From: Antedon mediterranea
Taxonomy: Eukaryota > Animalia > Echinodermata
DNA: 64,000 nt
Assembly (NCBI RefSeq): GCF_964355755.1
Contig: NC_092674.1
Location: forward strand, 13,082,001-13,146,000
Direction of reading: 5' to 3'
Part shown: piece after piece, positions 20,517-62,409 of the stretch
Layout: each line of letters begins with the position of its first letter
Numbering within the stretch: position 1 is the first letter of the stretch
Made by a program: the position numbers and the translations under genes
The notes under the pieces: model-generated
Told to the model about the DNA's origin: nothing
Seen by the model: the letters and a program-made list of their open reading frames with translations, nothing else
The model's database searches: none

Positions 20517-20558
20517 GCATTGTTGATTTTTTTTTGGAATTGAAAAAATTAAAAAAAA

Positions 20559-21188: not shown

Positions 21189-21287
21189 ATTGCTTGGAAG
21201 ATCGAATTTAGCACCAGCCTTGAGCAAAATAGTGCAAACATCTGTGTGGCCGTTTTGTGCAGTGTTATATAAAGGTGACGCTCCATC
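21189..21287 (-). CDS. Ankyrin-repeat exon (DGASPLYNTAQNGHTDVCTILLKAGAKFDLPSN)
   Basis: 99 bp, tttcag/gtaagt splice sites, phase 0/0. Confidence 0.92.
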
Positions 21288-23344
21288 CTGAAACATTACA
21301 AACATGATGTTATAGTAGTTTTCACTCTAAACAAAGTATTAATATTGTACTGAAATCAATACGATCAATTAAAAATAACGTTATGGATTCAAATAATGCT
21401 ACTTTGTTAAATTAAATAAAGATTATTAACCTCTGGTGTTTACTTTAAGATAATGTATTGTATACGTATACATTTGTCTTGTTTGTATAGTATTATTCAT
21501 ATAAGTACTGTACAAATGTAAACCAAATAAGTGTTTCTTTGCTTTTATCAGGTAGTGCTAACGAGTTAAAATTATGATAAAGTGGCGTTTGAACTGGCAG
21601 TTATGACAAAAAATATAATACTAGGATCCAAATTCTGTTCAACTAAATGCTTACTATTGGTTTTGTTTTAGAGTTACTGGACTGGAATAGTTTTTTTTTA
21701 GTTTTTTATTTTTTTTTAAGATGTTTTACTAAATAAATTGATATATCGATTCATATCCATTTAATGTATCATTTGCATAAAATAAATAATGTAGCTCGTA
21801 CAGAACAACACAATACAGAAACAGAAAAGTCACCATTAAAAAAAAATCATTCTCTAACATTCAGTGTTCTAAAGGCAGATGTTAAAACTATTACGGAATC
21901 TATTTGCACGAGGGGTGATGGACCACTTCCTTGAACTTCAAAAATAGTGCATGCAATAGGTTGGGTCTTGTAAAATCGAATGTGTTTTCTTAGTGTAAGG
22001 ATGTGGACGACAACAGTACAAAAGGAAAAAAACACGCCTTTTATCACTTTTACCACGGTCCGGTGGTGTATTTGGTTTTAATTTGTTTTTAGCATAACAA
22101 TAGAGATCAGTATGGTCCTGAAAACCACAAAATAAATACAATGAGAAACAAAAGTAAATAATATTCTAAAATACAAGCTAATTCTTAGTAACGACCTCAA
22201 CTTAACAGGCGACTCTAATAAAAAGGTTTCTCTCTGAGGACTGCGACTATTACATCAAACGGCACGTCTACCTAAACAGCCTCTGTATACTTTGTTAAAG
22301 TATACAAATACCTAATTAATTACCTACACAATTACATCATAAGTGCCTGAATATTACTAGAATAAATGCATGTTGGAATTTACTCACACTATTTGAATAC
22401 TAAACTTAGTCTATTCATTGAATCAAGGAGTTATAATCTTAGGTTTGCGTAAAATATAATAAACAATAACAAATCCATGGGCGCAGCCATTTTGTATGAT
22501 AAATAGAGGGCGCACTACATGACGATCTATCACGGTATCACATGGTAGCCTCGTGTGTACAAATTAATCAAGTGTGAACTGTAGGAATAGGATGAACTAT
22601 TTTATACAAACTGTTAACTAGAAATTATCTTCTACTGTATAAACTAAATATTACTAAATCTATCTAAACATAATTTGTTAATACAAAGAAGGTTTATCAC
22701 AAAAGTATATATTATAACATTATATGGCATAAAATCCTAGTTCCAAGATTGTAACACAATACTATTCAATAGGCTTCCTAACTGCACATTCCATGAGTCA
22801 AGGTTAAACCCAAAACAAAAGGTCTAGGCCTATGAATGTAATCATCTTAAAATACAACATTAATGTTTCTTAAGCATAACAGAATCTTTTAAATGTATAA
22901 CAAAATAATATATGTACAATGTAGAGTAATTACCTTTTAATCAGATCTTTAATAATTACATAAGAGACAAAACTATCTGCTTCCTTGACCGGTTCATGAA
23001 TACAAAAGAAAGCAAATCATTTGAAAAAGACTGTTACAATTATAGGAGGCAGTAACACCTATAGGGGGCAGTATTTAATTATCACATGATTAGAATAATC
23101 CCCACATTAGTAAAGTACTAATGATTCAAATTGAGATCTGCTTGAGATCTGCTCTGCTCGTTTGAGTTCATACGTGTCCTTTTGTGCCATTTTGATACCC
23201 TTACCCTTAATTGGTCGTGCCATTTAAGATCACTAGTGATTTATTTACAATCTCATCTTCAGAGTGGGTACCGTATTAATTTCATATTGTCACGATATTA
23301 CTGCCCGACACAAACACAAACTAGTAATAATAATAAGTAGCCAA

Positions 23345-26290
23345 ATATTGACATATTAAAAAAGGTTTCGATGTCCAATTTATCGAATCCTTTCAGTATT
23401 TTAAATACTTGGATCAGAGAAGCTCTCTTTCTCCTATAAACTAACGTAGGAAGATCAAGTATTTTTAGCCTACATACATACTCCGTACCCCTTAGTTCCG
23501 GAATGAATCGAGTGGCCTTTTGTTGTAGCTTCTCCAACCTATCCTAATCCGCTAAAACCTTAGGAACCCAGACATTATTACAGTATTCCAGGGTTGGACG
23601 TACAAGCGACTTGAATAACAGCAAAAAACTTTCAGGGTCCAAAAATGTAAACGCTCGATATATAATACCTAACTTCCTGTTAGCAGAAGAAATTAGCCTA
23701 CATGGGACACATGAGATCTAAAAATCAGTTTATCGTAAATTACAACGCCTAGGTCTTTCATCTCAGTTACAGCTTCCAGTTCTGTCCTCTGCTCGCCTAC
23801 TCCTATACTATATTTAAACTTGTGGTTGTTGTTACCAAAATGCATGATCTTAAACTTCGTTAGATTGAAGGGCAATTGCCATGTAGAGGACCATTTATAC
23901 AATAAATCAATATCATTCGGTCGATAGTTTAGCGGAGCTGACTTGTCTCCTTTCTTATAGAGCGGAACGACATCGGCATATTTCCAGGGTTCTGGAACCA
24001 CACCCTCACTCATTAATTTATTAAAGATAACTGCTAATGCTTCACCCAAAATATCTGAATTTTCTTTTAAAATCCTTGAATGGATCTCATCCGGACCTGG
24101 CGACTTACATATGTCTAAACCACTTAAATATTTAGTTATATCAGACGCTAAAAACTTCATATCATTGACTGGAATTATATCTGGTTTATCAGCCATTTCA
24201 GGAAACTCCTCAAGGTTCTCCACTGTAAAAAATCCAATAAACGATTCCTTAAATAATTCAGCTTTATTTATTTTTGACGACAGAAAATTTCCCTCATCAT
24301 CTTTTAAGTCTGGAATAAAAGGCTTATATTTTCGCTGACTATTTACATAATGCCAAAAGGATTTTGGATTTATTTTAACAGCTGACGCAATTTTTTTCTC
24401 TAAAGAAGCTCTTGCTTTGCGGACTTCATTGGTAGCTTGATTCCTAGCTAAAACAAAGCTATTCCAATTACTCTGATTTTTACATTTAAGATACTTATTC
24501 CATGCTTTGTGTTTAACTTTGATTATATTTTCTATCTCTTTATTAAACCATAGTTTATTAGTGGCTTTCTTATGATAAGCAGACCGAAGGGGTACAAACT
24601 TATATATGCATTCTTTTAGCTTTTCAGAGAGGTACAAAGATGCATGAGAAGTACCTAACACTTTACAGTTCTTAACTAAATCCGCGTCAATTAAATAATT
24701 TCTCATCCCAATATAATCAGCTTTATAAAAGTTTCTAGTTAAGGGAAAATTTTCTACTATGGGATATCCACATATCCTACATAAATGACAGAACTGCATG
24801 ATCGCTCTTGCCTAGAGGGGGACCATATATAACCGCATCAACGAAACATTCTTCTCGTGTAAAAATTAAATCCAATGTACGTCTACACAATACTGAAACC
24901 AAAAAACCTCCTCTGAAATATTTTAAAACAAAATCTGAAGTATCTGAATCACCTTGCGATTCCATTTTAACCCAATCGATATTCCTATAATTAAAGTCTC
25001 CTGCAACTAAAAGAAAATCTGCTTGAAAATGGTTTACCTGCTCCAATAACAAATTTAATAAAACATTATTCTCTTTAGAACTGCTTGGACTACGATAAAC
25101 ACAACCTTTTGCAAACATAAATGTAATTCTTCTTTCTTATTAAAAACAGAGTCACAGTTTGTATATAAACATAATAAACGATCTTTTTCTTTTAGCACAA
25201 TTGGACTAGTTTTGCTTAAAGACCCCTTCCCTGCAATTTTGGACGTTTTTTGGAAAATAATACATATATATCACTTTAAAAACATTAAACCATGTCATTC
25301 CTTGTCTTAAATGTACGTTTTATGGTAAATTATGATAAAAAGTGAGAAACAATGCACTACCTAAGTAGCTCGCGGCGATCGACCTCTCGTGGACGGTCTC
25401 AGGCCTAGCCTAGCTAGGCTTAGTTTTGTAGGCCTAGCTGGTAAACATCGGTAACGTACGAACATCGTACGCTAGCTATATACCTAGCCTGACGTTGTAT
25501 AGTTGCTGCATTAATTATCTTTCTATTTTTGCCAGACTCCGTTGATACAAATTGGGGAAAACCCGGTATTTTCGCTGAAAAGTTAGGAGTCTTCCATTTG
25601 TTTTGGCTTCACGATCGATCGAAAAGTGGGCGAATTACAGGTGAAAAACAACAATATCAATCCGCGCGCAATGCATTTTGGGATTTATAGCGGGCCGCTA
25701 TAATTATTAAAATCGATTTATTTTTCACATTTTTAACCGTTTAAAGACGAAAAAAGTTATCGCAATAGGACCATATAGTATTATTTTTACATTAAATATA
25801 GTTTGTGACCTTAAATTAGATCTAAAAAACGTAGGGAATGGGGCTTTAAGCCTTTATCAAATACTCGGTCCTTTCTTCCTAATTATCTTATTATTTCGGA
25901 TTATTAAGTCTAACTCCCCGTTAGCTTCTCTAATCAGGAGTTCTTGTTTTAGGCGTTTATATGCTTCGCGCTCCGATTTTAGTCGGTCATTAAATACCGA
26001 GAGATTGCTTTTCCTTTGTAATCTTTTCCGCGAGCTATCTTTATAAATTTGCGTTTATCCCATTCTGTACTAAAAATAACCTTAAGAGGTCTAGGCCCTG
26101 GCTTGTCCAAATCTCTTTTGCCAATTCGGAAACATAAAATAAAACTTAAATCTAAATCTTCCGCAAGACCCTTTACTACTCCCATGTCTTCCTCCTTCCT
26201 AATTTCCACTAAATCAGAGGTAGAGTCAACTAAACCGAACACCATAGCATTACATTTCCGCTTTTCTTTTTCGGCCCATTCATCAAGACG
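23345..26290 (-). mobile_element. CR1-like LINE remnant (ORF1 C-terminus, AP endonuclease, internally deleted RT)
   Basis: GCVYRSP, GDFNY, LGKSDH, NPKSFWHYV, KSPGPDEIH, VPLYKKGDK..NYRP, LEKLQQKATRFIP; ORF1 RIGK...PRPLKVIF; interrupted by the 25220-25845 MITE. Confidence 0.88.
25220..25845. mobile_element. Kolobok-type MITE
   Basis: TTAA at 25216-25219 and 25846-25849; AG...CT termini with imperfect TIR. Confidence 0.8.
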
Positions 26291-26314
26291 TATTAACCTA
26301 TTAACCTAACACAA

Positions 26315-26652
26315 CAACAGTTTAACCACTAACGTAACCAAATTTAACAACTAACGTAACCACTAACGTAACCACTAACGTAAACAAATTTAACAACTAA
26401 CGTAACCAAATTTAACAACTAACGTAACCACTAACGTAACCACTAACGTAAACAAATTTAACAACTAACATAACCAAATTTAACCACTAATGTAACCAAA
26501 TTTAACCACTAATGTAACCAAATTTAACCAGTAATGTAACCAAATTTAACCACTAACGTAACCAAATTTAACCACTAACGTAACCAAATTTAACCACTAA
26601 CGTAACCAAACTTAACCACTAACGTAACCAAATTTAACCACTAACGTAACCA
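26315..26652 (+). repeat. 22-bp minisatellite (TAACCAAATTTAACCACTAACG)
   Basis: Tandem units built from 11-bp half units; degenerate inverted counterpart at ~27385-27480. Confidence 0.92.
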
Positions 26653-28042
26653 AAGTAGAAATGTTCAGAAATCTCAGACAATTTGTGTTTTGAGAAGTCC
26701 ATTCATGTTTGTCTGTACGTCAAATCTCAATGTTTGAACTGTTAAATAATGGTGTTAAATGTAAATCAATTAAAACGTTTGTTTTCTATCCTTCAAAACG
26801 TTTAGACGTAATGGTCTTAATTTTAATCTCGTGTAAATGTAAATTCCAATCTTATAACTTCAGCCTATTTTTCCTATTTCGTCTGTCTGTGTGAGTGCTC
26901 TTTCCGCTATCAACATTGTAATGGTAAGACGTAACACAATAGTTTCCGTATGAAAACCTGGAGATACCTTATTGTGATGAAAGCCGTTACAATTCCATGC
27001 TTATCTTTCTGTTTTTCTAACAATATTCTTACTTTCAATGACGTGACACAATGTGCTTTTGTTGGCATACAAGTTTATTAGTTGATTAAGGTTTTCTGCA
27101 TATTCAACCATACATTTTATATTAAATTACGTTCGAAGGTTGAAAATGAGAAAATAAAAAAAAAACCAGAAGGATGGACAGAAAGTCAGACAGATAATCA
27201 TAGACCCAAAAGAAATTCAATATCAATACAGTTGAGGAAATAAATCCAACTTTCATGTGGAAAGTAAAACTTTATAATGTCCTACAGTTGAGAATGATAA
27301 TTTACTGATGGACGGACACTAAGATATTTTTTTAAATGAAAATCAGGCTAAATTGTTTTATGTCCATAATATTTCTACTACTGCTGTTACGTTTATAGTG
27401 GTTAATGTTACATTAGTGGTTGATTTGTGTTACGTTAGTGGTTAAGATTATATTAGTGGTTGATTGATACGTTAGTGGGTGGATACAGGACATAGATGGT
27501 CAACGTTTGCACAATACACAACCACACAGTGTTTTTGGTTTTGTTTGTGTACAACCATACAGTCTAAACCCAATCTTAGAATATCTCTTGCTAGATTAGA
27601 TGAATTAATATTATGAACATGCACAAGTACCTTAAATTTAATTCTACAATGAAAAGGATTCCAATGAAAAAAAAAAGTGGTTCTGCTCTAAAACGTAGTG
27701 ACACCTCAAATACAAGTTGTTTGGTAAGATTGCTTGAAGGTATCCAGTGCTTTAAAAGACAACGAAGTAAACTATCTTTGATAACTGACTTGTCAATATT
27801 AACTTTGACAAGGCACCGGTGTTCCGAACCATAATTATGTGAGAGGTACGACCGCCGTGCAGTTATCGACAGTACAGTCATCCTCGCTACAAATTACAGT
27901 ATCTATAATATGACCCGCATTGTGGTTGGTTCATTTACCTATATTATTACAGGCACGCCCATTAAATTGTAAAATTGTTATTATTTTTTTAATCACACTG
28001 AATTATATAGCACCTGTTATTAATAATATTTGTAACACTTAC

Positions 28043-28141
28043 ATTGTTTGGAAGATCCACTTTAGCACCTGCCTTGAGCAAAATAGTGCAAACGTCTGTG
28101 TGGCCCTTTTCTGCAGCCACATTTAAAGGCGACCATCCATC
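28043..28141 (-). CDS. Ankyrin-repeat exon (DGWSPLNVAAEKGHTDVCTILLKAGAKVDLPNN)
   Basis: 99 bp, tttcag/gtaagt splice sites, phase 0/0. Confidence 0.93.
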
Positions 28142-28552
28142 CTGAAATAATAACACACATCATGTTATATAAGTAGTAGTATAGTCTTCTACAAAAAGCT
28201 ATTTAATATTGTATTGAAATTTTTTCGATGTGATCAAGTAAAACTAGCTTAAAAGCCAGGTGAGGGCAAACAAATTCTATTGATCTTGCATTCCAATATA
28301 TATAGTTTCCCCTATGTTTAATAATGTTAGTGATTTTATTTGTGTTACACGAGCTTGTTGAAAATATGCACTTTATTATCATGGGGGATAGTTCAAATTA
28401 CACAATTAAATCTCTATTCATTTGTACACAAATGTTGTAAATAGAGAGGCAATTTAAAAAAAATAAAAATATATAGTATTGTAAAAAATGTTATCACAGG
28501 ACTAAATATAGATAATACTTCATAGTTTTATTTTCATGCTATAGCAAAAATT

Positions 28553-30598
28553 GGGTAGTAACAAAGTGCGAGGCAGCGAGGCACGCGAGGCAGGGAAGGC
28601 ATGCGAGGCAAGTCAGAAATTTATGCGAGGCATCGTTTTACCATCATCAAAAAATGCGAGGCATCATTTTATCATTTCTCAAAATTGCAAGGCAGGAAAT
28701 CACCGAAATTGAAGTAGCCTAGGCCTAGGCCCGCTAGGCTAGTTTCCTTTTGCACCTGCCTTGTAATTTAACCAAGGCTTTATCCTGAATACCACAGCTT
28801 AGAATTAGGCATACTTTAATGAAGAAAAATCACATAAAAGTAACAATAAATCCATTAAATTGGTGATTTTACAGACGTTGTTTTTCTCGCATTTCGCACA
28901 CTCAATGTTCAATATTTTGGTTTCTATGGAACGCCAAAAGAGCAAAATTAATTAGAGAGCAAAATTAATTAGAGGGCTAAAAACTCTGTGGAATCCATTT
29001 ATATTTAACGCATTATTTGGTGAAAATCAAGTACAATTTCAATAGATTTTGTCACTGTCAGTAAGGAAAAATGTTACTGTTGATAATGTACACGGTTTCG
29101 TTAACCTTTTAAAGAATAAAATAGAAAAATTCATCATAATATCCTTAGTAGGATGTCCTAGGTCTAGACTAGGTAGTGATGTTGATTTAGGATCGATTAT
29201 TATTCTTTGAAAACAGAACAGTATCAGCAGTAACATATTACAACATTTTTATTGACAAATTAACAAATATATTGAAATAAAACGTGTTTTTCACCAATAA
29301 ATGCATGAGAAATTGACGCATTCCACTGAGTTTTAGTCCTCTATTATCGTTGCTCTTTTGGCGCTCCATAGAAACAAAAATATTGAACATTGAATAAGTG
29401 AAATTCGCGAACAGTGTGCGAGAAACACGCCTGTAAAATCATTAATTTAAGGATTTATTTGTTACTTTTTATGTGATTCTTTCATTAAAGTACTCATGAG
29501 GTATACTTCTAAGGTGTGGTATTCACACGATAAAGTTAGTTATCAAATTTGGAGTAAAAATACAAGCGAAGGAAACTAGCGCCAGGTTTATTAGTACGTA
29601 CATGGACAACAATAAATAAAAATCGTTCGTAATATACCTAGCTTACTAAAACAGGAATAGTGTATCATTATTAAATATTACACCAATTATTATTTTATCA
29701 AAATTGATTAAATTATTTTCTACATAGGCCTTTATCTAGGTTAGGGCTAAGCATATTAGCTAAAGTTTAATTTTAGGCCTAGTATTACAATTGTCGGACG
29801 TAAGTCTTTTTTCACACGCGCTCCAGAATTCTGTCGCAATTTTTTTCTTTGCGGCATGTTATTGGATCGGCATATCAGTTACCTTTTATTCACCGCCAGT
29901 TATTGAACTTGTCCTGGCAATCGCTGTTCACCTTATTTGCGAGAGAGGTACACGTGTTGTTCCTAGAGAATGGAATGTCAAAAATGTCTTTGGCACGCCG
30001 CTCAGAGAGAAGTCTGTGCGTTGCTGCTGAAACCACGTGCTATAGGAGGGGAATGCACCACAATCCTCTGAGCTGAGGGCTGAATCATTCCGCTACCTGC
30101 TAAATAGTAAAGAGGGATTTTCCATCTCTCGGGTCTACCGGATCTAGGCGCAGGGGTGTGACAAAATATTATTTTCACTCTGCTATGTTCGAGAGACATG
30201 TGAGTGAACACGCTCGAAATGCCAACAAACATTGCAGTCATTTGATGAGTGTGTCGCTATAACAATTATTGTTTATCGAAAGTTGAAGACTGTCGTTCAG
30301 ATTTTTGAACCGTAGTTTGGGCACTTTTGTAAAAGTAAAATTTGACACGATATGACTTGAATGAAAAAACAATCGTTACATAAAAATAAACAACATGATG
30401 AGTGTATACACGAATCTATTTAGATACGCTTGTATCGATTGATTATTAGGCCTATAATATAGCATAATAGCACGTTAAGATATGCCTCGCACCTTTTTGA
30501 AATTGTAAACTATATGCCTCGCACTTTTGGAAATGATAAAATGATGCCTCGCACAAATATTTGGCATGCCTCGCGTGCCTCGCACTTTGTCAACACTC
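28553..30598. mobile_element. Non-autonomous MULE-like element
   Basis: TIRs with repeated GCGAGGCA motifs; perfect 9-bp TSD GCAAAAATT at 28544-28552 and 30599-30607. Confidence 0.88.
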
Positions 30599-31126
30599 GC
30601 AAAAATTATCCACCGTATATCCACCATCTTTTTTCACCTTCTATAGAGTCACCGGACATGTAATTACACTAGGGGCCCGTTCGGACGGGACTGAAACTAC
30701 CGTGTACTTCCAACTGTGAGGTCGCGTGTGGCAATTAACTTACGCCTCTGGCTATAAAAAATTAGAAAACCATCTGGACGAAAAATCCACCAACTTTACT
30801 GGTTATTTCAATCCCATTCCAATTACACGCTGCCTCGGGGTATAATTAATCAAGCGTTAACGGGGTCATGTCAAATCGCGACCTCAAATAAGCTTTCTGA
30901 TTGTTTAACAATTATTGTTTAAAATGTTCTTTTTCGTTAATGCGAATGTATATCTATTGTTTTGTAAAATTATATTATATAAATAATCAACTCGTTGGTT
31001 TTTTTCCGGTGACCTGAACTTGCGAATCGGTGGCTTATAATAGCGAGCTTTCGTAACGGGACGGTAAACGTGCAGTACGGCTGGTTTAACCAACCGTGAC
31101 CGTACTCATTTACTAGGCTCCCATCA

Positions 31127-31495
31127 GCGTAATTTTTTTTTCCAGGACGAACGTGGGCAGAAATCATGAATAATTCATGAATAATTATGACATAATAGGG
31201 AACAGTATAGAGGGCGCTATATAAGTATGCAGGGATATTAATAATTAGTGTAAACAGCGTTTGCCAAATGTTTGGTCTAGTGGTAAAGGCTTTAACCTGT
31301 TACGCTGGAGCCCTCGGTTCGAGGTCTTTCATGAACATGTTTTTTTTTAATAGTTGAGAGAGATTATTTAGAGGGTTAGGTTTAGTATATTTAGGAAGTA
31401 GATCAGCTATCTTGCAATTCTTTATATAGAAAATAATTAAGGTAATGAATTATTCATGATTTCTGCCCACGTTCGTCCTGGAAAAAAAAATACGC
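31127..31495. mobile_element. MITE with ~50-bp TIRs; truncated single-end copies at ~345-424 and ~45260-45343
   Basis: gcgtaattttttttccaggacgaacgtgggcagaaatcatgaataattcat and its reverse complement; no clear TSD. Confidence 0.7.
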
Positions 31496-31572
31496 CGACG
31501 GGCGTATGTGCGCGACGTCATAGTGCGACAGGTATCATTATCAGTTTTCTCGGCTTTCAGCATCTCACACAA

Positions 31573-31752
31573 CATGGCGAACCTACATAGGGTACGAGAT
31601 GCTCTTGATGCTGCCTATATTTCAGATGTTCTAGACGAGGAAGAATTCATTATGTTTTATAGTATGAATTCTCCAAGTAATCCTGATTTTCAGTATATTC
31701 ATCAATTCAACTTAGATAAATTCAACGATGATGAATGCAACAGCTATTTCAG
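31573..31752 (+). pseudogene. N-terminal fragment of a PIF/Harbinger-group transposase
   Basis: MANLHRVRDAL...DEEEFIMFY..N...FNLDKFNDDECNSYFR resembles the N-terminus of DDE_Tnp_4 proteins; no downstream exons found. Confidence 0.5.
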
Positions 31753-33579
31753 GCTAGGCCTAGGCCGAATCTCAGTCTAAGCCAATTTTTTTATTTTATA
31801 TTTTGTATCACTGATCTAGAGCACTACATTGTTAGTTAGTAAGTAATGCTTAAATTAAATAATTAAATATATTTTTACTTCTCTGGAGGACCAAACTTAA
31901 AGCCTTGGCTTAGTAATGCGTCCTGCTCACACAATTGTATTTATTAATTTATGTTTCTGTATTATATTGTATTGTATTGTGTGAAACAATAAACTTGAAA
32001 CTTGACATTAATGAACATTCATTTAATATGCTATAGCCTAGTCCATGTTTGATTAAAATGCTTTACTCTTGACGATACTACTTCCATCGTGTCCTCCATA
32101 ATTAAAATACACAGCTGAATGTACGTTTCAGACAGGACGCTATTTCTTCTCACTACCGTTCTCAAATTTAACGCTACGGTGAGTCTCAAATTTCTGCGCA
32201 TGCGTAGATCACATTTTAAACGGCTTGCAACATGGGCCAAAGCACCCGTGTCTCAATGGCGATGCAGTACATGCAGATAGCGCGCATTCTGTTCAAACCT
32301 AACAGCAACTCAACAACTCGTGTAACATTCGGCTATATCGATTTCTGATATAATTTTATATACAAATTTTACAATTTTCCCTGCAAAATACTTCGATGAT
32401 TTTTTAATATAATGGATTTGATTTTTCTTTTTTTTTTCTTTTTTTTTACAGTATAATTTCATTTTGTTTAAACTAACGTGCACATATATAGCATCGCATT
32501 GGTAAGTCACAAACATATTAGTGAAATGCACAACATTGCAGTAATAGTTATTAATTCATAAAGGTTATGAAATAATCACATTAAACAAAGGTCTATCCTT
32601 ACACGTACGAAAAAACACCAACAGTTATCTAACAACACGTATTCCTTACTTTCGCGCAAACACTGAAAGAACGAATGATTTTATATTATGCTTAATTCTG
32701 GAATAGGTATGCACAATGTAAAACGCATAGCACCAACTCCGTGTCGGTTCTTACCCCAGCTGTTCCATACGTCTAATGTCTTAGAAAAGATAGTATTAGT
32801 GTTTTTAATGTCTTAGGCATATATCATCATTTAACAGTCACCGGTAAAGTTACTTCCGAGTTAGTCATCACTTTGCGATTTCCAACTTCGCTGTAGTCAC
32901 AATAAAACCTCTGTACAAAACGCTTGCAGCTGTCCCACATGTGAACGTGGTATGTACATTTGATATACATTTGAGTCAAGATATTTCATGTTTCTCTCTT
33001 TAAACGTCAAAATGAACTAATTTTTATTAATTATATTGTAGAATACTATGGTTTGGCTATTTAATATTATTGTGACTCAGACTGTTTAAAACTTAATGAA
33101 GAAATAGCTCATAATGTTTAATATGTTATAAATTCTGTATACACTACGATAGGACGTGACGTTATTATTATATTACAGTTGTAGACTATGTATAACTATT
33201 ATAATGTACCGCGATGGTAAGACTCGCATACACATTAATAATATTACAAGTAATAAATATTAATTTATAAAGATTAAACAAGTTATTACAAAGTTTGACA
33301 TCAATTGTGACAAAACCTTGGTTAATCTGACTTTCCAATGTCAAGATTAACCATGACGAGGCAGTGGTGTTCCGAACCATGTGAGGGATACAACCGTGCA
33401 GTTCTCGACAATTTAGTCATCCTCGTCACAAAAATGGTCTGTAATATGACCCGCGATGTGCTTGCTTCATTTATGTATGTTATTATTGGCACGCCCTTTA
33501 AATTGTAAAATTAAACACTTTTTTAAATCACATTGAATTATATAGCACATATTATTTATGTGTACTGTGTAACACTTAC

Positions 33580-33654
33580 TTTGGTCTGAAGATCCAATTT
33601 AGCACCTTCCTTGAGCAAAATGGAGCAAACATCTGTGTGGCCATTTTGTGCAGA
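33580..33654 (-). pseudogene. Decayed ankyrin exon (..AQNGHTDVCSILLKEGAKLDLQTK) that has lost its 5' end and splice acceptor
   Basis: Donor intact. Alignment to the 37386 exon shows the first ~9 codons and the acceptor CAG replaced by a few bases (gcagatataaatattac vs gcagccacatgtaaaggtgacgctccatcctgaaatattac). Confidence 0.85.
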
Positions 33655-36600
33655 TATAAATATTACAAACATTATATTATAGAATTTTCTCTCTCTAAAC
33701 AAAGTATTATAATATTGTCCTGGAATCAATACGATGTGATCATTTAAAAATGACGTTATAGATTTAAATTATGCTACATAGTTAAATTAAATAAAGAGTA
33801 TTAACCCTTTTCTTTAAGATAATGTATTGTTGTATACATATACATTTTTTTGTCTTTCTTGTAGGCCTATAACATTTTTTTACAGTGTTTTATAAATTTA
33901 TCAAACAAATAATTGTTTTTTTCTTTTTTGGCCTGAAAAGTAAACACTTCATCCGATAGTGCTAACTAGTCTGAATGTAAACTGACAGTTACAGCTAAAA
34001 ATATATCTAGGCTCCAAATTCTGTTCAGGTAACATGACACTTTGACTGCAAAATTCTTACAATGATTACGGAATCTATTACGAGAGGTGATGGACTTTTG
34101 CTTTGAACGTCAAAATAGAGCATTGGATAGGTTGGGTCTTACAAAATTTGTCAAGTTGTCCTCAATAAAGTCTCTTATAAAAATGAATCAAATTGAGATT
34201 TGCTTAATTATAACTACTGTAAGTGAAGCATAACTAAAAATACGTTCCAGCTAATTCTTACATGGTGAATAATGAGAATATTTTTAATGACAGATTTATA
34301 AAAAAAAGACTTAGGCCTATGGGAGGTTTAACTACAAAAGATTTAAGTCTACGGAAAAGTAAAGTCTATTTGATACTCTCATTAATGAGGTCGTGCCATT
34401 TAGGATCACTACGGTAGTGATTTATTTGCAATCTCAACTTCAGATTGGGTACCGTACCGTATTTCATGATTTAGGTGATTTTCCTATTTTTGTTGGTTAC
34501 TTTGGGTGGAATATACTGTATGGTACTGCAAATAAGCAAATCTATAATAATAACCCACTACTCTAATATTAACCCATGGGGGTTACTCTTAAAGTCACAA
34601 ACACTTATGATGCAGCTGTATTTTGAAAATAAGGAGATAATGAAGGTTGATCTTGGGAGTGGGGGGAGGATTGAGTGTTTTTGAGTTCAAACAAATTTGT
34701 TTATTCGTACTGTTTTATTATTTTGCTATGAGTTGCTGACCAGAAAAGTTGGGGTGGGTTACTATTTTCAGGTGCCTAATTTAAGATTAGTAATAGTAAC
34801 CCATTAATAGTTCCATTCCATAATAACCCATTCCAATAGTTAACCCACCCTAAAAAACAATCAAAGAATAATAACCCAGGGTTACAATTAGAAGATTTAC
34901 GGTATATAGAGTACTGCAAACCATAATAGAAGGTAACATTTGTTTTATTTGACACGACAAAGCATGTGAACTCCCCAAAAATGTACCGTATTTTAATGTA
35001 CTAAATTTTAAATGTTGACATGGCATAATAAACATTGAAAGTTCTTTCTAACAGAGTTTTTTCTCGGGGTACTCGGATGTTCTACTTAATTTTTGTTTTA
35101 TTTATTGTAATGCGCCGTGTTCTTTTTTTATCTTTGATTGTATATTGTTTTTCAATAAGCGTGCGGAGGATTCAGGTAATATCTCTTTAAAGGGTAACAC
35201 CGCGGCTTTAAAATGTATATTACTTATTATACAGATATTGCCTGCTTAGAGATGAAATATAAGATTTGACAAGTGAATGATATTATGTTCGAGGGAATAT
35301 ATATTTCCTGAAGCGTAGCACGTGAATGAACCTGTCATTTCTTCTGAAGGATCTGTCTGAGAAGGACAGTGAAACTGCAAAAAGCAGGTTAGTTTAACTA
35401 ATTTTTTTTTCGAAAAGAATTAATAATTCACATGCCGTATCGTTACAAAATCTCAGCGAAGCCATAGTAATTATTTCATTAACATGCATACTTGTCTAGG
35501 ACAAACATCTGAAAAGAGGCCTAGAAATCAGATAGGGGAAGTGGAATGTTACGGGTAGTCAATGTAGCCATTATATCGTATTAATCCATTCTGATCACTC
35601 TTAAGACTTGTTGACACCTAATTGTTTACATAGACTATACCCCACTTCAAGTATTATTAAATTATAATAATTATGACCTATCCACGTTCTATCACCATAT
35701 TAAATAATTTGTCATTGTTTAAAGAAAACATTAATCATGATGTTTTTAAAGTGTAATCAGTGCTACTAAGCGCCTTTGATGTTTACATTGGTAGTTAACT
35801 ACTGCAATACAAATAACTACTTATCAATATAAGTGTATGCAAGTTACTTTTTGGTAACTTAAAATTAATTGTCATAAACAGGTTGTTAAATGATACTGGT
35901 AAGTACTTTTGTGTCTAATTTATCCAAAACAATATTATTTAAATTATAAACTTTTAATATTAAATCATTGGACAGTTTGTGTGATATGTGTAATGTTATA
36001 CTTGCTAATTTTAAAAAAAAAGTATGAAAGCAAACATAACAACAGACAATGATTACTAGTTTCCCGAATAATTGTTGAATTAAACTAAAATTTGAACTCA
36101 ACTCATCATCGTGATGATATCGGGATATCCGCGTTAACGCACACAGTGTAACAAACATCTTGAAATACACTCATACTCTATAAACTGAAAACATGTATAG
36201 TGCTGAATTATGTCTATTATGTGTCATACAGTACTAAGTGCGAATAACCAATAAAGTAGTGGGTTTTTTATCGTAAAGAAAACAAAGCATTTAATTTGAT
36301 ATTTTTCTTGATAGTATAATATTCAATTGTTTGGTGTATATCACTGTTATGAGTCCAGGTAAGCACAACTGTGACATCTATTGTCTATAAACGTCTATAA
36401 ATTTCAAGTCCTTTATTGTCTGACTTGGTTTTGAATGAAGTTATAGGCCTTCAAATTCAAATGTCAAATGAATACTAATATTGGTGTCCTTCCTGCATGA
36501 TCTCAAGCTCTTCCGCTAGTCACCTAATCCACCAAAAATATTGGTATGCATACAGAGAGTCATGTCAGGAATAAACAATGTAAGTCGCTTATTACGAAGA

Positions 36601-37385
36601 TGGACCTATTTCATTATGTAACTGCTGTTGTCACTATGATGTTATTTACGTACATAATTTGTATAATTAATATTTATCTATTGTGTAATCACTTATAGAA
36701 CTTAACTGATTTTAAATCAATGGGAGCTCATCAGTTATATACATTATAATGTTTTCAGATTTGACAAAATAATTAAAACTGATTACTTTCCGATTATCAG
36801 AAAGCTTAAATGTGTTAATATTTACATAAACAATGGTACGAAGACGTAAACTTACTGTGAGCTTCTGCATTTAATATATACTATTAAGAGGCTAATTATG
36901 GCTATTTCAAATAACAGTTCGGAATAGTTGGATTTTGTTGCTTATATTCGAACTTGTCTTTTATTTCAAACTCACAAAAACGGGCAATGAAAATGTCGTT
37001 ATTAAAAACATTATTTTAAGCTTATTCAGTATAGTTAAATTATTCAATTTATTCATTTATTTATATGTGTTGTTCCTTTTTTTTCTTTTTACTTGGTTAG
37101 ATAAAACATGTTAGTGATAAAATGCCAATATTCTAGTTAACATTCTTCATTTAATGATAATCCCACAAATTGCACTATTTGTGTATACTTAAATAGGTAG
37201 CTCTTTTCGTATATTTGTTGCTGTTAGGAAAATAAATATTTCACTTCAAAAACTTTCCAAAAATAGTGGTACACAACAATGACAACAAAAAGAGGGGAAA
37301 AAACTCTATTTTACGTTCTTGTTATATAAATATTATGAACGACTGAAATTATATAGCACATAATATTTATGTGGGTAACACTTAC

Positions 37386-37484
37386 TTTTGCCTGAAGATC
37401 CAATTTAGCACCTTCCTTGAGCAAAATAGTGCAAACATCTGTGTGGCCGTTTTGTGCAGCCACATGTAAAGGTGACGCTCCATC
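37386..37484 (-). CDS. Ankyrin-repeat exon (DGASPLHVAAQNGHTDVCTILLKEGAKLDLQAK)
   Basis: 99 bp, cag/gtaagt splice sites; contained in ORF 37311..37559. Confidence 0.93.
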
Positions 37485-47411: not shown

Positions 47412-47485
47412 CTAGTAATTGGATTGTACAGACGCCTAGTAATTGGATTGTACAGACGCCTATTAATTGGATTGTACAGACGCCT
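47412..47485 (+). repeat. Three copies of a 24-bp unit (TAGTAATTGGATTGTACAGACGCC)
   Basis: Direct tandem repeat. Confidence 0.9.
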
Positions 47486-49690: not shown

Positions 49691-50155
49691 AAAGAGGGTT
49701 TACAGATAGTTATTATATATGCGATGTTTTTTTTTTCAAGACAGTTTATCAGGAATCAATCCTATTTTTGTTCTTTCTTGAGTTAAGTTTAGGGATCATT
49801 AATTTGAAAAACAATAGTTCTTTGGTGAGATCTTGCTTGGAGGTTTCCAGGTCACGGGGTTTAAATTACCGCGACTTTTAAACTATCATTGGTTGATCTA
49901 ACTGCCCAATGTCAAGATTAACCTTGACAAGGTAGCGGTGTTCCGAGCCATGTGAGGGGTACAACCGTGCAGTTCTCGACAATACCGTAATCCTTGATAC
50001 AAAGTATGAAATGATATATGACCCGCAATGTGAGTTGGTTCATTTAGGTATGCTATGTACGCCGGTACGCTCTTTAAATTTTAAAATTAAATATGTATTT
50101 AATCACACTGAATTATATAGTAACACATACTATTATTAATGTTTGTAACACTTAC

Positions 50156-50254
50156 ATTTCTTGGAAGATCCAATTTAGCACCAGCCTTGAGCAAAATAGT
50201 GCAAACATCTGTGTGGCCGTTTTGTGCAGCCAAATATAAAGGTGACGCTCCATT
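50156..50254 (-). CDS. Ankyrin-repeat exon (NGASPLYLAAQNGHTDVCTILLKAGAKLDLPRN)
   Basis: 99 bp, cag/gtaagt splice sites, phase 0/0, ankyrin consensus. Confidence 0.93.
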
Positions 50255-51035: not shown

Positions 51036-52419
51036 AGTGGAGCTACACTCAGACTTTATCAGCTTATATTATGTTTAAGTATGTTTAATTGAAAGTGATT
51101 ACATTAAAAAAACCAGGAAAAATACGGAAATATTTTCCAAAAACTCATTTCTAAAAAATCTGTCAGAAAATAGTGTTTTTTAACAAATTACAGTTTTTCA
51201 GTAACTTAGGGGTTATTAGTTTACAATACGTCGCGAAACGCGTTACACTTAGCGACTCACGCGTTTTAGTCGCCGGTCAACGCATTGATGAAATGTCTCT
51301 CCTTTGGTAAATTATGTGTCGAAAAATGGGGAATAATTTTTATACACACAATTAATACGATTTGTTTAGGCCTAAGTAATATTTCCGATAAGAATGTCAG
51401 TATAATTTACATGTAACCTCATGATTTTCACTGTACAACAACAGCATAATAATCTTATCAGATTGCTTTTAACTTTAAGCTAGGGCTAGGCCTAGCTAAG
51501 CCGTCTGCTCAGCCAAGCTAGCCTTGAATTTTTGTCTAGAGGCCTATGTATTCATAGGCATGGTCGTTTCGGCCCATATCGTTCCTGGGTTTTCTCGCAC
51601 ATTAAGAATTGTGAAACACAAAATCCTATACAGAACAATATTAGTAAAGAGTAGTAAAGCGATGTGCAAGCTTAGACCTGACTGAAAAGCAACTATTCAG
51701 GCACCCTATCATGGCCCATGGGTAGGCCAAGGTCGGGTGCCAGCAAAACAAACTTCACTGCTGTCAGCCTAGCCGCGCCTAGCTAGAGGCCAAGCAGCAA
51801 CGGTACATACCTACACTCTAGTAGGCCTAGGCCTAGCTTTATTGAATATATAGCCACGTCTTTCTCAAATCTCGTTAAATTTGACATTTTAGTAATAGTC
51901 TCATAATCACATTATTACACTGTGAAACATAATATGGTCATATTCAGAATGTTTTAATATACTTTTCGCCCGTCAAAAATAACATCGCGACAAAATAACA
52001 GATCGCCAGCTGCAGTAGTGTGATTGTGAAAAATGTCACGTGATCGTACTCCCTAGCAAAATAAAAAACCCAATTGGACCTGAACGGGGGAAAGTGTCTA
52101 TTTACGCAAAATTGCGCAATGTATACGTGATAAAAATACCAGAAATAGAAAGATCTGGAAAAATTACATAAATAGACATTTTACATTTTTTTTTTGGTGA
52201 AGAAATGAATTTTTTAGGATTATTCAAATATACCCCCCTTTTGCATGTAAAAGAATAGGAAATTACAAGGTATCCCCCCAAAACGCAAAAAGGCGTGATT
52301 TTCAAGAAAATCGTACTCATTGAAAAAAATTTCAAAAAAATATGAAGTATAAGGGATGATATTTTTAAATAATAGTTGAAATGTATGAAAAATAGTAATT
52401 TTCTGGGTGGAGCTCCACT
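51036..52419. mobile_element. Kolobok-type non-autonomous element
   Basis: TIR AGTGGAGCT(A/C)CAC(T/C)CAGA; TTAA at 51032-51035 and 52420-52423; empty site catttaagatcac at 23221-23233. Confidence 0.88.
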
Positions 52420-53027
52420 TTAAGATCACTAGTGATTTATTTACAATCTTCAGATGAGTGGGTACCGTATTAATTTCATATTATAGGTGATTTTACTTTA
52501 TAAAATGTGTGCATTGTTTTCAATTGTTTTCACCTGCTTTGATAGAGACAATACTGTTAATAATTGTTTATTAGTAAACACATAGTGTACCCAAAACCAA
52601 CCCAGTGTATTTGTGCACATAATAGTGTTGTGTAACATTTGTAATTTAGAGCGTTTTTTTGACACGACAAAGCATGTGAACTCCTGAAAACGTACAGAAT
52701 CATAATAATGTAGTACATATGGTTGGTGTAACTTCACAATAATGATATAATGAAACATCATATGTTAGTCACCTTAATATGGTCATTTGCCATATACGAT
52801 GATTTAAAAATTCAGAGTTTTAATATTATAGTATTACAGTTGAATATTTGTGAGTGGTCACCTCCCGTAGTTTCAAAAGCCCGTTTGTTCTTCATCTAAT
52901 TAGTGGACCTCCTGTAAGCAGCCATCTCATGTGAGCAGCCGCGGAAAATTTGTTTACAACACATGTACATCAGATTGTTTGTATGGTAAATTACCTCCCT
53001 TAAGCGGCCACCCAAAAAATTGGCTGC

Positions 53028-55633: not shown

Positions 55634-56936
55634 TCAATCCAAAAATCCAGCAAACTGGAAATCATCTTCCATACCTGGTGGTGGGAAGTGGGCTCTTATG
55701 CAGGAAACGGCACATGATGGTAAGACTACCCTTAGGTTTCGGCCCAAAAACCCCCAACACCATCTGGCGAGTTGCCGGTACGCAATATGTCTCAGACGTT
55801 TATGTGTTGAGGCTTTAACAGGTGTGTCGTACTGTTGGTGGTAATGCAGCCATGCAATTTCCAACACATGCAAATTCAAACAGGCAGCAGTGAATCCAGA
55901 ATGTTCAGTGATGCATATGTAGGCTTCTCCGTATTGTAAATTGTCTGACCTTCCTCCAGCCTATGATTAATAAATAATAGGGCCTACTTCCTGGCAACAT
56001 CGACATTCGCGATACGTGGGTAGCATCTGGCAATGGCCACAATCACACCTGTTTTATAAAAACAAAAATATTTTGTAATAATAAATAATATTGTAGCGCT
56101 CTAGAGCGCTACAATATTCTGAGATGTCACAATTTATAGGGCGCTATATTAAATATTTTTAAAGTTTTAGTGATTATTAATGATTAATTTAATGTATTGT
56201 GTGTGAAATAGGAAAATAAATCTGCATCTTGGCTAGCCTTAGGGGTGGGCCTATCTATCTAGGCCTACCCTAGGCCTATTTCAAACAACAAAGTGCAAAT
56301 TTGTTAAATAAAATGGTCAGTCTAATAGTAATACCGTAATGTACATTTTTGCTTTCTACGATTCAATTTAGCCTAATCTTTATTTCGTTAAAAAAATTCA
56401 ATCTAGGCCGTAGGCTTATAGACGATAGCCGACCGTCGCCGGTGAGAGGGCTAGCCGCATGAATTGGAGTAAAGTACAGTAGTAGGGCCTAGCCTCTATC
56501 TAGGCCTAACTAAGCCACAATACACACACTGGCATGACGGAAGAATATCGTAGTTATCTAGGCCTACTAGGGAATTGTTAATTATACAATAAAGTTATAC
56601 ATTAATTTTTAATAAAAGAGATAGTACTACTAACCAATTTAATAACTGGGTTTGAAGTTGAATATTCTCTGCTTGAATTGTAGGTAGGCCTAGGCCTACT
56701 AGGCTAGGTGACGGTCACCGTCGCCATCTTCTGATGATGAAGAATCGTCAGAACTACAACCGGGCTCGTACATGTACGGCCGAATTAATTTCATCGACAT
56801 TCCATTCAATATTTCGATTGTTAAACAAAATAGTTTCTCCTTCATTCTCCTCAGTTTCGCATTCCACTATCAATGTTTCCTCTTCTAATTCCTCTGACGA
56901 AGAACTGTCAAAATCATACGCAATACGTGTTGACAT
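55634..56936 (-). pseudogene. KolX / Nanor-like protein (P2X7 C-terminal ballast-like Cys-rich domain), decayed
   Basis: CDCGHCQML..RECRCCQE, CITEHSGF..ACLN..VL, RHIAYRQLARWCWGFLGRNLRVVLPSCAVSCIRAHFP; in-frame stop and frameshift near 55920-55970. Confidence 0.82.
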
Positions 56937-58329: not shown

Positions 58330-60880
58330 AGTATTATGTCAATGAGGCTTAGTAGTATGCCACATGCAATATGAATTGAGAAAAAGAAAAATAACGACAA
58401 TTGTATTATTAAGAAAAAAAATTTGGTAACGAATTGATTGATTTTTGCACTGAGTATAACTTGGTTATATCTGATTTGGAATACTTTGGTCATTACTCAG
58501 ATACGTTTACTTATTTTAGTGATGCTCACAGTACCACAAGTTGGTTAGACCATGTTGTGAGCACTCATAGTTCCCATCTCTGCTGTGTAATTTTATAGTT
58601 AATTATGATTTTATGTGTTCTGATCACTTTCCTATTTCGTTTGACTATTTATGCATTGATATTTGTGATGATTGTAATGACAAGGGTGAAAATATGCATG
58701 AATCCTAAAAAATTATCAAAGTTAACTGGAATAATGTTAAGAGGGAGGATATAAACAATTTTAATGAGATAACTGAATCCTTACTTAGTAACCTTACTCT
58801 CAATTGCGATGGTTTACTTTGTAATGATTCCTCATGTAAAGATGAATGCCATTGCAATGATATTAGTGATTTATATGACAATATTATTGAGTGTCTGAAA
58901 GTCAGTTCTGAGTGGTGTTTTAAGTCGACTAAAAATCAAAAAGTCAATGTTGTCCCTGGGTGGAATAACCGAGTAGCTGGATTTCATAAACATGCTCGGG
59001 AAGCATTTTTGAAGTGGCGTGAGTTGAGTAAACCCAGATATGGCCACATCTATGAACACATGAAAATCACTAGATCTAATTTCAAAAATGCCCTCAGAAA
59101 GTGTAAATCCAACGAAGAAATGCTAAGGGCGGACTCGATGGCCAAGTCTTTTGACGATAAGGACTATAATAGTTTCTGGGGTAAGGTTAAGAAATCCAGT
59201 TACGCCAATTCCCAGTCTAACATTATTGGTAGTGCTAAGGGGCAAAATGACATTTGTGACCTATGGCGTCAACATTTCTCCGATTTATTTAATAGTATTG
59301 ACTCATCTGAGCATAAGACTTTTGTTAATGAAACTCTTGAAAACTGTACAGACGGTGAAATTGATGTTTCACCCCATAATATTAAGCTTTTAATTGACAA
59401 ATTGCCCAATGCTAAAGCAGCGGGATATGATGGTCTATGCAATGAGCATTTCAAATTCCCTTCTGAGCGACTTAGTATTATTTTAAGTGTATGTTTTAAG
59501 GCTATGTTTGTTCACGGGTTTGTTCCAAGTAATCTCACAAAAGTCACGCTTGTGCCGGTAATTAAATCTAAATCAGGGAATATCACTGATAAAAGGAATT
59601 ATCGGCCAATAGCTTTGGCATGTGTAGCTTCTAAACTTCTAGAGTCTGTAATGATACAACATTGTGGTAATTCACTGGACTCCCATGACAACCAGTTTGC
59701 CTTCAAATCTGGTCACTCAACCGAATTGTGTATATTTGCTCTTAAACAGATTATCGAGCATTACAACAATCATGGTAGCCCAGTTTATTGCTGTTTCTTG
59801 GACGCTAGCAAAGCATTTGATAAAGTGAACCACTGGACACTTTTCAAGACCCTAATTGACAGGGGTACCCCTTCACATGTAGTTAAGATACTGAGGTCAT
59901 GGTATATGAATCAGGAATTTGTTGTCAGGTGGGGAAGTTCCGTTTCCGATTCTTTCACTGTTCGTAATGGGGTTCGCCAGGGAGGCGTTATGTCACCTCT
60001 TCTTTACAATGTGTACACTGATCCGTTAACTGTTGAACTGACTAAGTCAAAAGAAGGTTGTGAAATTAACAGTCTTAAACTGAATTGCCTAAGCTTTGCC
60101 GATGACTTGGTCCTTTTGGCTCAGTCAGTGACTGGCTTACAAAGCCTAATTGGACTCTGTGAAGGTTTTGCTAGTGACCATGATATTACTTTTAATGAAA
60201 CCAAATCCAAATGCTTGCTATTTTGCCCGAAACCTCGAAGGTGTTCCACATATTACCTTAAATGGGGCACCTCTAATCGTTGATAATTCAATAACCTATC
60301 TTGGTCATGTGATCAGTAATAACCTGAGTGATGAAAGTGACATCAAACGTCAATATCGATCTATTTGCATTAGGGCCAACTCTCTAATCAGAAAGTTTGC
60401 AAAATGTTCTAATAAGACTAAATGTTATCTATTTAAGAGTTACTGTGTCAGCATGTACTATTCAACCTTATGGTGTAGATATAATAAGAGCACTCTGAGA
60501 TCACTGAAAGTATGTTATAACAATGCCTTACGTCTGCTGCTGAAGCAGCCTAGACATTGTAGTGCAAGCATGATGTTTTTCTTAAATGACGTCCCATCCT
60601 TTGATGAGTTCATTAGAAAATCTGTTTTTAGTTTTAAAAATCGTGTGAACGCAAGTAGTAATTCCTTGATCATGGCCATTAATCGCCACGTTCTTAATGT
60701 GTCAAGAATGCACATACAATGGAATGCTTTGTTGCATTGACTTTATATATTTACATATCTTTGTTTTTGTTCTATGAGCTGTTAGATTAAGATTTTTTTG
60801 GGTTTTTTTTTCTCTCTTTTGCTATGGATAAAATATTATGTCACCATGATATTCCGAAATAAAAAGATAAATGAAAAATG
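58330..60880 (+). mobile_element. LINE remnant (RTE-X-like) with endonuclease tail and RT
   Basis: SWLDHV, SDHFP, NYRPIAL, FLDASKAFDKVNH, GVRQGGVMSP, FADD, LFKSYC motifs; frameshifts; AATAAA at ~60858. Confidence 0.85.
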
Positions 60881-62310
60881 AAATTATTGTGACCGAATTA
60901 ACGCTTTAAAAAAGCATTATTAAATACATACCGATAGGTCTATGTGAACGACCGACACTAACCACGATACATTACTTTTAATTACTCTTTGTAGGTCTAC
61001 ATTTAGTCTTTGATCACTACATTGGATGCGTTATTGTGTTGCTTGTAAACAGTCATTCTACATGCTTTAGATCATAGAAATAATTACTTTGTTATATTAT
61101 AATATAGGAGTAACTGTACATTTAATGTACGATAAACAATCGCAATTGACATACTACAAATAATGTAAACCAATATTGCTAGAGTTTCATTAAAGCAAAT
61201 GTTTCTTTTATGTTTGAATGCAATTATATTTAGCTAGACTTATTGTTGTATTAATTTAGATACACAAATAAAAATAGGAAATTATAAGAAGAAACATTCG
61301 GGAATTACCAATCGTGATCTTAGAAATTATGTTCATGACAAATGTGTCTATTTTAATATTTGAAGTAATCTTTTCTTTATATTATGTCATTTGAACAATT
61401 GAATAGAACATGAACTCAGTACTTACGGATTTTAACCCACGAAGCATCAACTTTTGCAATCGAACATTTTACCGGCACAAACGAAGCAAATTGAAAAAGT
61501 TAACATGTTGCTGATCTGGTAAATACCATTGAAATGTTAGCGAAACAATAAGCCATGTGTCTTAGAAAAGATAGTATTACGGTTTCTTTATTTTCTGATG
61601 TCATCGGTAGACTTGTAACGGCGGTAAAGTTACTTCCGAGTTCGTTTTCACTTTGCAATGTCCGGGTTGCAACTAAAACTTCGCGTGAACGTGACATGTA
61701 CATTTGATATACATTTGAGTCAAAATATTCCATATTTTTCTCTTTAAACAAATTTTTAAAAAATGAACTAATTTATATTAATTATACTGTATATGGTTTG
61801 GCTATTTAATATTATTGTAACTCAGACTGTTTAAAACTTAATGAATAAATGACTCTTAATGTTTAATATGTTATAAATTGTGAATCCACTACGATACGAC
61901 GTGACGTTATTATTACAGTTGTAGACTATGTATAAATATTATAATGTACCGCGATGGTAAGCCGACTCGCAATAAAATTAATAATATTAAAAGTAATATT
62001 TCTTATTAATTTATAAAGATTAAACAAGTTATTACAAAGTGTGACATCAGTTGTTACAAAACCTTGGTTAATCTGACTTTCCAATTTCAAGATTAACCTT
62101 GACGAGGCAGCGTTGTTCCGAACCATGTGAGGGGTACAACCGTGCAGTTCTCGACAATTTAGTTGCAACAAAAATGATCTGTAACCCGCGATGTGGTTGC
62201 TTCATTTAGGTATGTTATTACTGGCACTCTCTTTAAATTGTAAAATTAAACACTTTTTGAATCACACTGAATTACATAGTAATATTATTATTAATGTGTG
62301 TAACACTTAC

Positions 62311-62409
62311 TTTGGTCTGAAGATCCAATTTAGCACCTTCCTTGAGCAAAATAGTGCAAACATCTGTGTGTCCGTCTTGTGCAGCGAAATGTAAAGGTGA
62401 CCCTCCATC
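62311..62409 (-). CDS. Ankyrin-repeat exon (one 33-aa repeat, DGGSPLHFAAQDGHTDVCTILLKEGAKLDLQTK) of a multi-exon ankyrin gene
   Basis: 99 bp, open frame, flanked by tttcag acceptor and gtaagt donor, phase 0/0; matches ankyrin consensus G-x-[ST]-P-L-x-x-A-A-x-x-G-H...LL..GA. Confidence 0.93.

Follow-up and report, generated by a model that had tools for sequence, protein, structure and literature searches.

An array of one-repeat ankyrin exons in Antedon mediterranea, probably the sensor region of a ROCO gene

Six tandem cassettes, each an exon for one ankyrin repeat, lie on the minus strand of a 64-kb stretch of the Antedon mediterranea genome (RefSeq assembly GCF_964355755.1, contig NC_092674.1, positions 13,082,001 to 13,146,000; hereafter the window, numbered from its first letter). 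We propose, at a probability of roughly 0.68, that they are the N-terminal sensor array of an ankyrin (ANK)-(Death)-Roc-COR gene, or ROCO gene, with a likely role in innate immunity or cell death. Five of the six exons are intact, they were copied along with their intron flanks, they vary mainly on the predicted binding face of the repeat, and their closest relatives carry Roc.

The exon array and its growth

The exon array is far beyond chance. We scanned all six frames of the window with a profile made from five of the exons and recovered six loci at E values from 2e-25 to 3e-17; the next match had an E value of 1.6. The same scan found no plus-strand (inverted) cassettes in the 64 kb. These loci make up a direct-repeat family of six members, and the six exons are as follows.

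E1, 62311..62409, minus strand: 99-bp phase-0 exon encoding one ankyrin repeat; AG/GT bounds, open for 33 residues, profile E value 9e-25
E2, 50156..50254, minus strand: 99-bp phase-0 ankyrin exon; 31 of 33 residues match the first repeat of P0032, an ANK-Roc model from Antedon
E3, 37386..37484, minus strand: 99-bp phase-0 ankyrin exon; 27 of 33 residues match the first repeat of P0134, an ANK-Death-Roc model from Antedon
E4, 33580..~33654, minus strand: likely pseudo-exon; a 24-nt deletion takes the acceptor AG and the first codons, and the donor is intact
E5, 28043..28141, minus strand: 99-bp phase-0 ankyrin exon; its upstream intron flank is the most divergent of the set
E6, 21189..21287, minus strand: 99-bp phase-0 ankyrin exon; a recent duplicate of E2

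E1, E2, E3, E5, and E6 are each exactly 99 bp, bounded by AG and GT, open in frame 0, and encode 33 residues, and the donor GT context is common to all six paralogues. Pairs of exons were identical at 83-92 of 99 nucleotides and 23-29 of 33 residues (mean 76% of residues, as simple identity). The open reading frame (ORF) that holds E3 matched Pfam Ank above the cut-off (E value 3e-08), and E3 was the sole exon inside a stop-to-stop frame of at least 100 residues. The introns along the array measure 12,056, 12,671, 3,731, 5,438, and 6,755 bp. An earlier note, made from the letters of the window and a list of its ORFs, had described six paralogous minus-strand exons 4-13 kb apart, five of them exactly 99 bp with one ankyrin repeat each, phase-0 boundaries, and near-identical splice sites, and a single one visible among the ORFs. 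That description held throughout, with the spacing now at 3.7-12.7 kb and the sixth exon, E4, recognized as acceptor-deleted. We considered whether E4 is rescued by a cryptic upstream acceptor; an in-frame option of 111 nt exists, but its context is purine-rich and its added residues are intron-derived, and we regard the rescue as unsupported. The window as a whole is 34% GC and is transposon-rich, animal-type DNA.

Each exon was copied together with 0.5-1.5 kb of its intron flank, as seen by self-BLAST and alignment, a point absent from the earlier note. The copied regions are listed here.

20557..21994: copy of the cassette unit that contains E6; matches 49512-50918, which contains E2, at 91% identity (3.8% substitutions) and an offset of 28,955 (self-BLAST)
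32941..33944: copy of the cassette unit that contains E4; matches 61685-62682, which contains E1, at 83% identity (7.4% substitutions) and an offset of 28,744 (self-BLAST)
33536..37286: E4 with the intron upstream of it; piecewise collinear with E3 and the corresponding intron (37347-44485)
1..23288: region around and downstream of E6; collinear pieces 1-459, 5295-5781, 17964-18624, and 23107-23288 match 44926-52482 around and downstream of E2

The shared units are 1.4 kb long for E2 and E6 and 1.0 kb for E1 and E4, and the offsets of the two pairs are nearly equal, which therefore points to the duplication of a block of ~29 kb. Between E1 and E2 there was no counterpart of E5. The E3 copy of the intron is interrupted by an element with terminal inverted repeats (42837-43923) that the E4 copy lacks, and the downstream flank of E3 stops resembling the other copies ~40 bp past the donor. 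The left region (1-23288) is enlarged by transposons, and some of its collinear pieces may be dispersed repeats. The collinear block predicts a further E3-like cassette past the left edge of the window (position 1).

As reconstructed from the sequence, the history of the array comprises at least two rounds of duplication and one loss, because it holds the ~29-kb block, the collinear introns of E3 and E4, and the pseudo-exon E4. Such gains and losses keep the reading frame, since each intact exon is a phase-0 unit of 99 bp. The earlier note had suggested that the repeat content of this animal gene can change by exon duplication and loss, and the duplicated flanks, the offset of the ~29-kb block, and the pseudo-exon bear this out. 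Synonymous divergence between exons averaged 0.12 and was mostly below that of the nearby introns (0.03-0.42 per pair), a weak hint of homogenization or of splicing constraint.

Several other elements lie in or beside the array. The interrupting element at 42837-43923 is ~1.1 kb long with 90-bp terminal inverted repeats (99%), and related ends occur at 4068-4356. ORFs of the long interspersed element (LINE) type, with endonuclease and reverse transcriptase matches, are found in or beside the cassette introns at 23696-26305 (minus strand), 45899-46705 (plus strand), and 58709-60737 (plus strand). The E1-E2 intron holds an ORF with a P2RX7 C-terminal domain (55637-55960, minus strand, E value 3.5e-13) in the orientation of the ankyrin exons; it is probably part of an inserted element and not of the ankyrin gene. 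There are 22-bp tandem arrays at 26321-26654, 20560-20622 (2.9 copies), and 49427-49569 (6.5 copies), the latter two in the duplicated E6 and E2 units.

Binding-face variation and splicing in the cassette family

The variation among the exons was concentrated on the predicted binding face of the repeat. For an engineered ankyrin library, PMC3308923 gives six exposed binding-surface positions that were randomized (repeat positions 2, 3, 5, 10, 13, and 14), and the repeat consensus printed there places them at exon codons 33, 1, 3, 8, 11, and 12. These independently defined positions replaced a post-hoc set of nine variable codons, which we dropped. Among the five intact exons, 12 of 33 positions were variable, comprising all six binding-face codons and 6 of the 27 elsewhere (Fisher p 8e-4). 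Non-synonymous divergence (pN) was 0.318 on the six codons; elsewhere pN was 0.080 and synonymous divergence (pS) was 0.125 (permutation p 0.009). Framework codons 14-30 were nearly fixed, with pairs differing at 0-4 of 51 bases, and the residues that differ belong to the hairpin and to helix 1. The earlier note had read the repeats as a variable sensor region, and the concentration on the binding face agrees with this. Family variants from sequencing runs behaved similarly: 17 of the 29 that change an amino acid or create a stop fell on binding-face codons, which make up 19% of sites (variants taken from 39 exon rows among 40 of 49 rows, each scored alone against E3). Together these values suggest positive selection on the binding face.

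Exons of the family are joined head-to-tail in RNA-like runs. Fourteen sequencing runs matched part of the stretch, the best sharing 0.54 of words, and none is recorded as RNA. We aligned four of them (X1, X5, X6, and X14) to E3 plus 40 bp of flanking sequence, at a likeness threshold of 80%. Coverage in X14 was limited to the exon, and depth in X5 was ~5,900 on the exon versus 11-240 on the flanks; in the DNA-like runs X1 and X6, exon and intron were covered alike. All seven listed joints (five in X5 and two in X14, from two studies and two organisms) correspond to an exact head-to-tail period of 99 nt, a figure obtained by arithmetic, since the letters between the two sides of a joint equal the letters skipped. 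No head-to-tail joints were listed for X1 or X6. In X14, inspection of the loose ends by hand showed them leading into repeats that resemble the terminal ankyrins of P0134 and P0032. The earlier note had held that its proposal would fail if no spliced transcripts joined the exons; at the family level, the joints in X5 and X14 are probably from such transcripts.

The cassette family is larger than the window. In the four runs, 182 (X1), 79, 82, and 8 contigs aligned to one exon, many with 5-17 differences from E3, and the family therefore has more cassettes than the six seen here; summed contig depth was not used as a copy number. An exact 34-nt exon pattern had 0 matches in metagenome contigs. 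Joints between cassettes in 20000-39999 (for example, 21609 to 37821) were set aside, as paralogous mis-placement fits them as well as rearrangement does; the alignments of the four runs to that interval were dominated by transposons and short contigs.

The gene and the alternatives

Judging from its relatives, the array is probably part of an ANK-(Death)-Roc-COR gene. A profile search gave 1262 hits, and among the 120 listed, the match of highest identity was P0032 of Antedon mediterranea, a model that comprises four ankyrin repeats and the beginning of Roc. A second search in the same species gave P0134 (ANK, Death, and a Roc-type P-loop) and P0129 (ANK and Roc). Across the 396 proteins fetched in all for repeat comparison, the highest identity of a repeat to a window exon was 31/33 for P0032 and 27/33 for P0134, and all others were at or below 21/33, on which ground we rejected a canonical ankyrin, TRP-N, or ANKRD-type gene. 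P0032 and P0134 both open with the intron-derived peptide that precedes the window exons, so the acceptor context is common to the models and the exons. Gene prediction for these two began inside an intron, and upstream cassettes, if any, would therefore be missed; the two carry 2-3 cassette-type repeats, and the array of the window is in none of the related RefSeq models. There are eight of these (XP_071950050.1, 31/33; XP_071950764.1, 27/33; XP_071945850.1, XP_071945430.1, XP_071964198.1, XP_033111650.1, XP_077976934.1, and XP_066289261.1), all labeled "uncharacterized" by their source and all sharing the Roc subfamily.

The wider set of relatives combines Roc with effector-type domains. Used as a query, the Roc region recovered a crinoid family of 8 proteins; used as a profile, it recovered 570 representatives at E values up to 1e-30. 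We scanned the domains of 30 Roc-COR relatives, 28 of them hand-picked from the best 150 plus P0134 and P0129, with Antedon, Anneissia, Glandiceps, and Branchiostoma as named sources. Complete ANK-Roc-COR-Death models were P0254 and P0323, and P0270 was ANK-Roc-COR-DED (source names Antedon and Glandiceps); amphioxus also has an ANK-Roc-COR model. In the two closest models, Roc was seen as a Pfam hit or a P-loop; the G1, G3, and G4 motifs were present in P0254 and P0122, and COR-A was found in P0254, P0270, P0127, and P0123-P0128. The closest relatives carry Roc and not NACHT or NB-ARC, and the scan of crinoid relatives, P0129 and P0254 among them, found no kinase domain. Partners of Roc-COR among the 30 included a terminal Macro, TAZ, FN3, or Neuralized domain, together with Death, DED, CARD, TIR, HEPN, or GT4. 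Effectors of the Death/DED/CARD/TIR/HEPN/GT4 type are linked to counter-invader systems in PMC8195603. More broadly, P0121-P0128 and P0251-P0394 belong to a large uncharacterized deuterostome expansion of Roc-COR proteins, with DED, Death, CARD, TIR, HEPN, GT4, Macro, TAZ/KIX, ZU5, and trypsin-like partners.

Exons were copied inside the locus along with their intron flanks, in part as the ~29-kb block, and afterwards one of the copies lost its acceptor. If the array is the sensor of such a gene, unequal crossing-over, with some gene conversion, would alter the number and order of repeats in the germ line. The stacked repeats would offer a concave surface of variable binding residues, and a ligand bound there would control the Roc-COR GTPase switch, with output through a Death or DED domain; combinatorial skipping of exons would be possible by construction. 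PMC8195603 proposes a switch-plus-effector model for AP-GTPase/COR systems with fast-evolving repeats, and a comparable scheme has been put forward for the algal ROCO genes.

Several observations weigh against this reading. P0032 and P0134 are partial and end before the G3 motif and COR. A search of the window with nine crinoid ROCO proteins (tblastn and profile) found no Roc, COR, or Death exon, and one other match (P0121, E value 0.008) lay inside a LINE ORF. The 21 kb after E6 hold transposon-type ORFs only, and the array is thus linked to Roc through family resemblance only. X5 is guessed to be RNA and also covers introns, the type of X14 is unrecorded, and joints taken at 80% likeness belong to the cassette family and are not assignable to the locus in the window. 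Among the four RefSeq isoforms of P0129, the differences are confined to single residues or the start, and none is the size of a 33-residue repeat. Whole-exon pN/pS was 1.09, and the ten exon pairs, drawn from five sequences, are not independent. E2 and E6 differ by 7 non-synonymous and 0 synonymous changes at a flank divergence of 4.6% (p 0.06, not significant), and four of the seven are adjacent and may represent one event. Surface variability on a fixed framework would be expected in any ankyrin array under relaxed constraint. Unlike Ectocarpus, the Antedon window has no inverted repeat exons. The earlier note had put the terminal domains outside the window and called the function unknown; the first part stands, as the search with ROCO proteins indicates, and the second gives way to a likely ROCO sensor-switch, a function narrowed through the relatives. 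Among the candidate terminal modules that the note had named, Roc-COR is the likely one.

The array could be a by-product of a transposon-rich, recombination-prone locus in the same ROCO gene, with surface residues drifting under relaxed constraint and repeat number playing no part in recognition. A whole-exon pN/pS of about 1.1, a p of 0.06 for E2 and E6, one dead copy of six (E4), and a window full of LINE, Penelope-like, and DDE elements would all fit. One repeat per exon is a common structure in animal ankyrin genes, a point for which a literature search gave no confirmation. However, the six binding-face codons have a pN of 2.5 times the pS measured elsewhere, both splice sites and an open frame persist in five of the six copies although their introns have diverged by 3-42%, and relatives carry death-fold, TIR, and HEPN domains. 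We consider drift of this kind unlikely as the whole explanation.

A somatic repertoire like that of Dscam, in which a single gene gives rise to numerous isoforms through skipped or alternatively used cassettes and cells differ in their binding surfaces, seems to us less probable again. The symmetric phase-0 exons with near-identical splice sites and the several junction types within one RNA-like run would allow it, and there is a precedent in the alternatively spliced LRR exons of brown-algal ROCO genes (PMC11378527). The many paralogous cassettes (182 X1 contigs on one exon) explain the variety of junctions equally well, however, and none of the four P0129 isoforms skips a repeat. Least probable, and in our judgment very improbable, is an orphan or decaying array, or that of an ankyrin gene with another C-terminus (ANK-only or ANK-Death), cut off from a Roc exon: no further family exon lies in the 64 kb, the 21 kb after E6 are transposon-rich, and several family models are partial, but five exons are intact with strong conservation of framework codons 14-30, introns of ~12 kb are normal at this locus, and the collinear block predicts that the gene runs on past the window edge.

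Other elements lie to the left of the array. A Penelope-like element at 8533-11429 and 17421-17920, labeled from its layout only, has a weak RVT_1 ORF at 9639-11429 (plus strand) and terminal repeats of ~200-400 bp, direct and inverted, at 8533-8748, 9000-9210, and 17501-17920. A DDE_Tnp_4 (Harbinger-type) transposase is present in pieces at 15384-17607 (minus strand), and near these are a MADF ORF (11540-11854) and a BESS ORF (14113-14514) on the plus strand. Long inverted repeats at 2200-2768 and 7251-8229 flank a segment of ~5 kb that is a possible DNA transposon.

Comparison with known systems

DAPK1 has the layout kinase-ANK-Roc-COR-Death. The order ANK-Roc-COR-Death is shared by P0254 and P0323, whereas the crinoid relatives scanned lack the kinase and form a multi-copy, lineage-specific family with near-identical repeats, in contrast to a conserved single-copy gene. 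Among the crinoid, hemichordate, and amphioxus ANK-(Death)-Roc-COR-(Death/DED) models, the closest two have the same repeat subfamily and the same acceptor context as the array. Outside these, ROCO domains occur in TLR-like and MyD88-like proteins of Aplysia, as stated in PMC9334734; PMC12314368 and PMC8229355 serve as general background only.

The repeats resemble two other diversified repeat systems. As in the libraries of designed ankyrin repeat proteins (DARPins) represented by PMC3308923, a 33-residue framework is fixed, and the six positions randomized there all vary naturally in Antedon; the Antedon repeats are natural and exon-encoded, and the analogy is structural only. Like the fungal HIC NLRs of PMC13449251, the array has near-identical repeats with few variable surface positions in a transposon-rich setting, with identity here being simple identity and not the Psim of that paper. 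As described there, the fungal proteins have NACHT or NB-ARC and a C-terminal sensor, whereas the Antedon relatives have Roc and an N-terminal sensor, with repeats as separate exons.

A full-text search found no publication that describes exon cassettes of ankyrin type in the ROCO genes of crinoids or other animals (most subscription papers and supplements were outside its scope), and for Roc-COR with ankyrin and exon shuffling the same search gave the brown-algal work only (PMC3341825 and PMC11378527). What is unusual is the recent turnover of cassettes and the binding-face variation in a probable ROCO gene, not one-repeat exons as such. If our reading is true, the design of a repeat-per-exon sensor joined to a Roc-COR switch arose again in animals, with an ankyrin version in a deuterostome, and a candidate family of diversified intracellular receptors is added to echinoderm immunity. 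Such arrays are likely missed by annotation, given that both of the closest gene models begin within an intron, and the cassette can be used as a counting probe. The array also provides naturally occurring variants of the binding face on a single ankyrin framework. A more far-reaching proposal, which we consider doubtful, is that echinoderms have a natural DARPin library in which the one-repeat cassettes of ROCO genes undergo duplication, exchange between loci, and combinatorial splicing, so that each animal or each cell would have many different intracellular sensors with a GTPase switch and death-fold output, convergent with the brown-algal LRR-ROCO genes.

The closest parallel in design is that of the brown algae, whose leucine-rich repeat (LRR)-Roc-COR genes, in the accounts of PMC3341825 and PMC11378527, have one LRR per 72-bp phase-2 exon, inactivated exon copies in introns, concave-face variation, and a proposed role as immune receptors. 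The Antedon array is similar in having one repeat per symmetric exon, a repeat sensor that would be N-terminal to Roc-COR, an inactivated repeat exon in an intron (E4), concave-face variation, and a proposed immune role. It differs in its unit (ankyrin, 99 bp, phase 0, versus LRR, 72 bp, phase 2), its animal host, its introns of 4-13 kb, and the death-fold domains of its relatives; alternative splicing and formal positive selection are described for the brown-algal genes, whereas for Antedon positive selection is suggested and alternative splicing would be possible by construction. Based on these comparisons, we conclude that the cassette array works like the exon-shuffling ROCO genes of brown algae but is not a member of that family.

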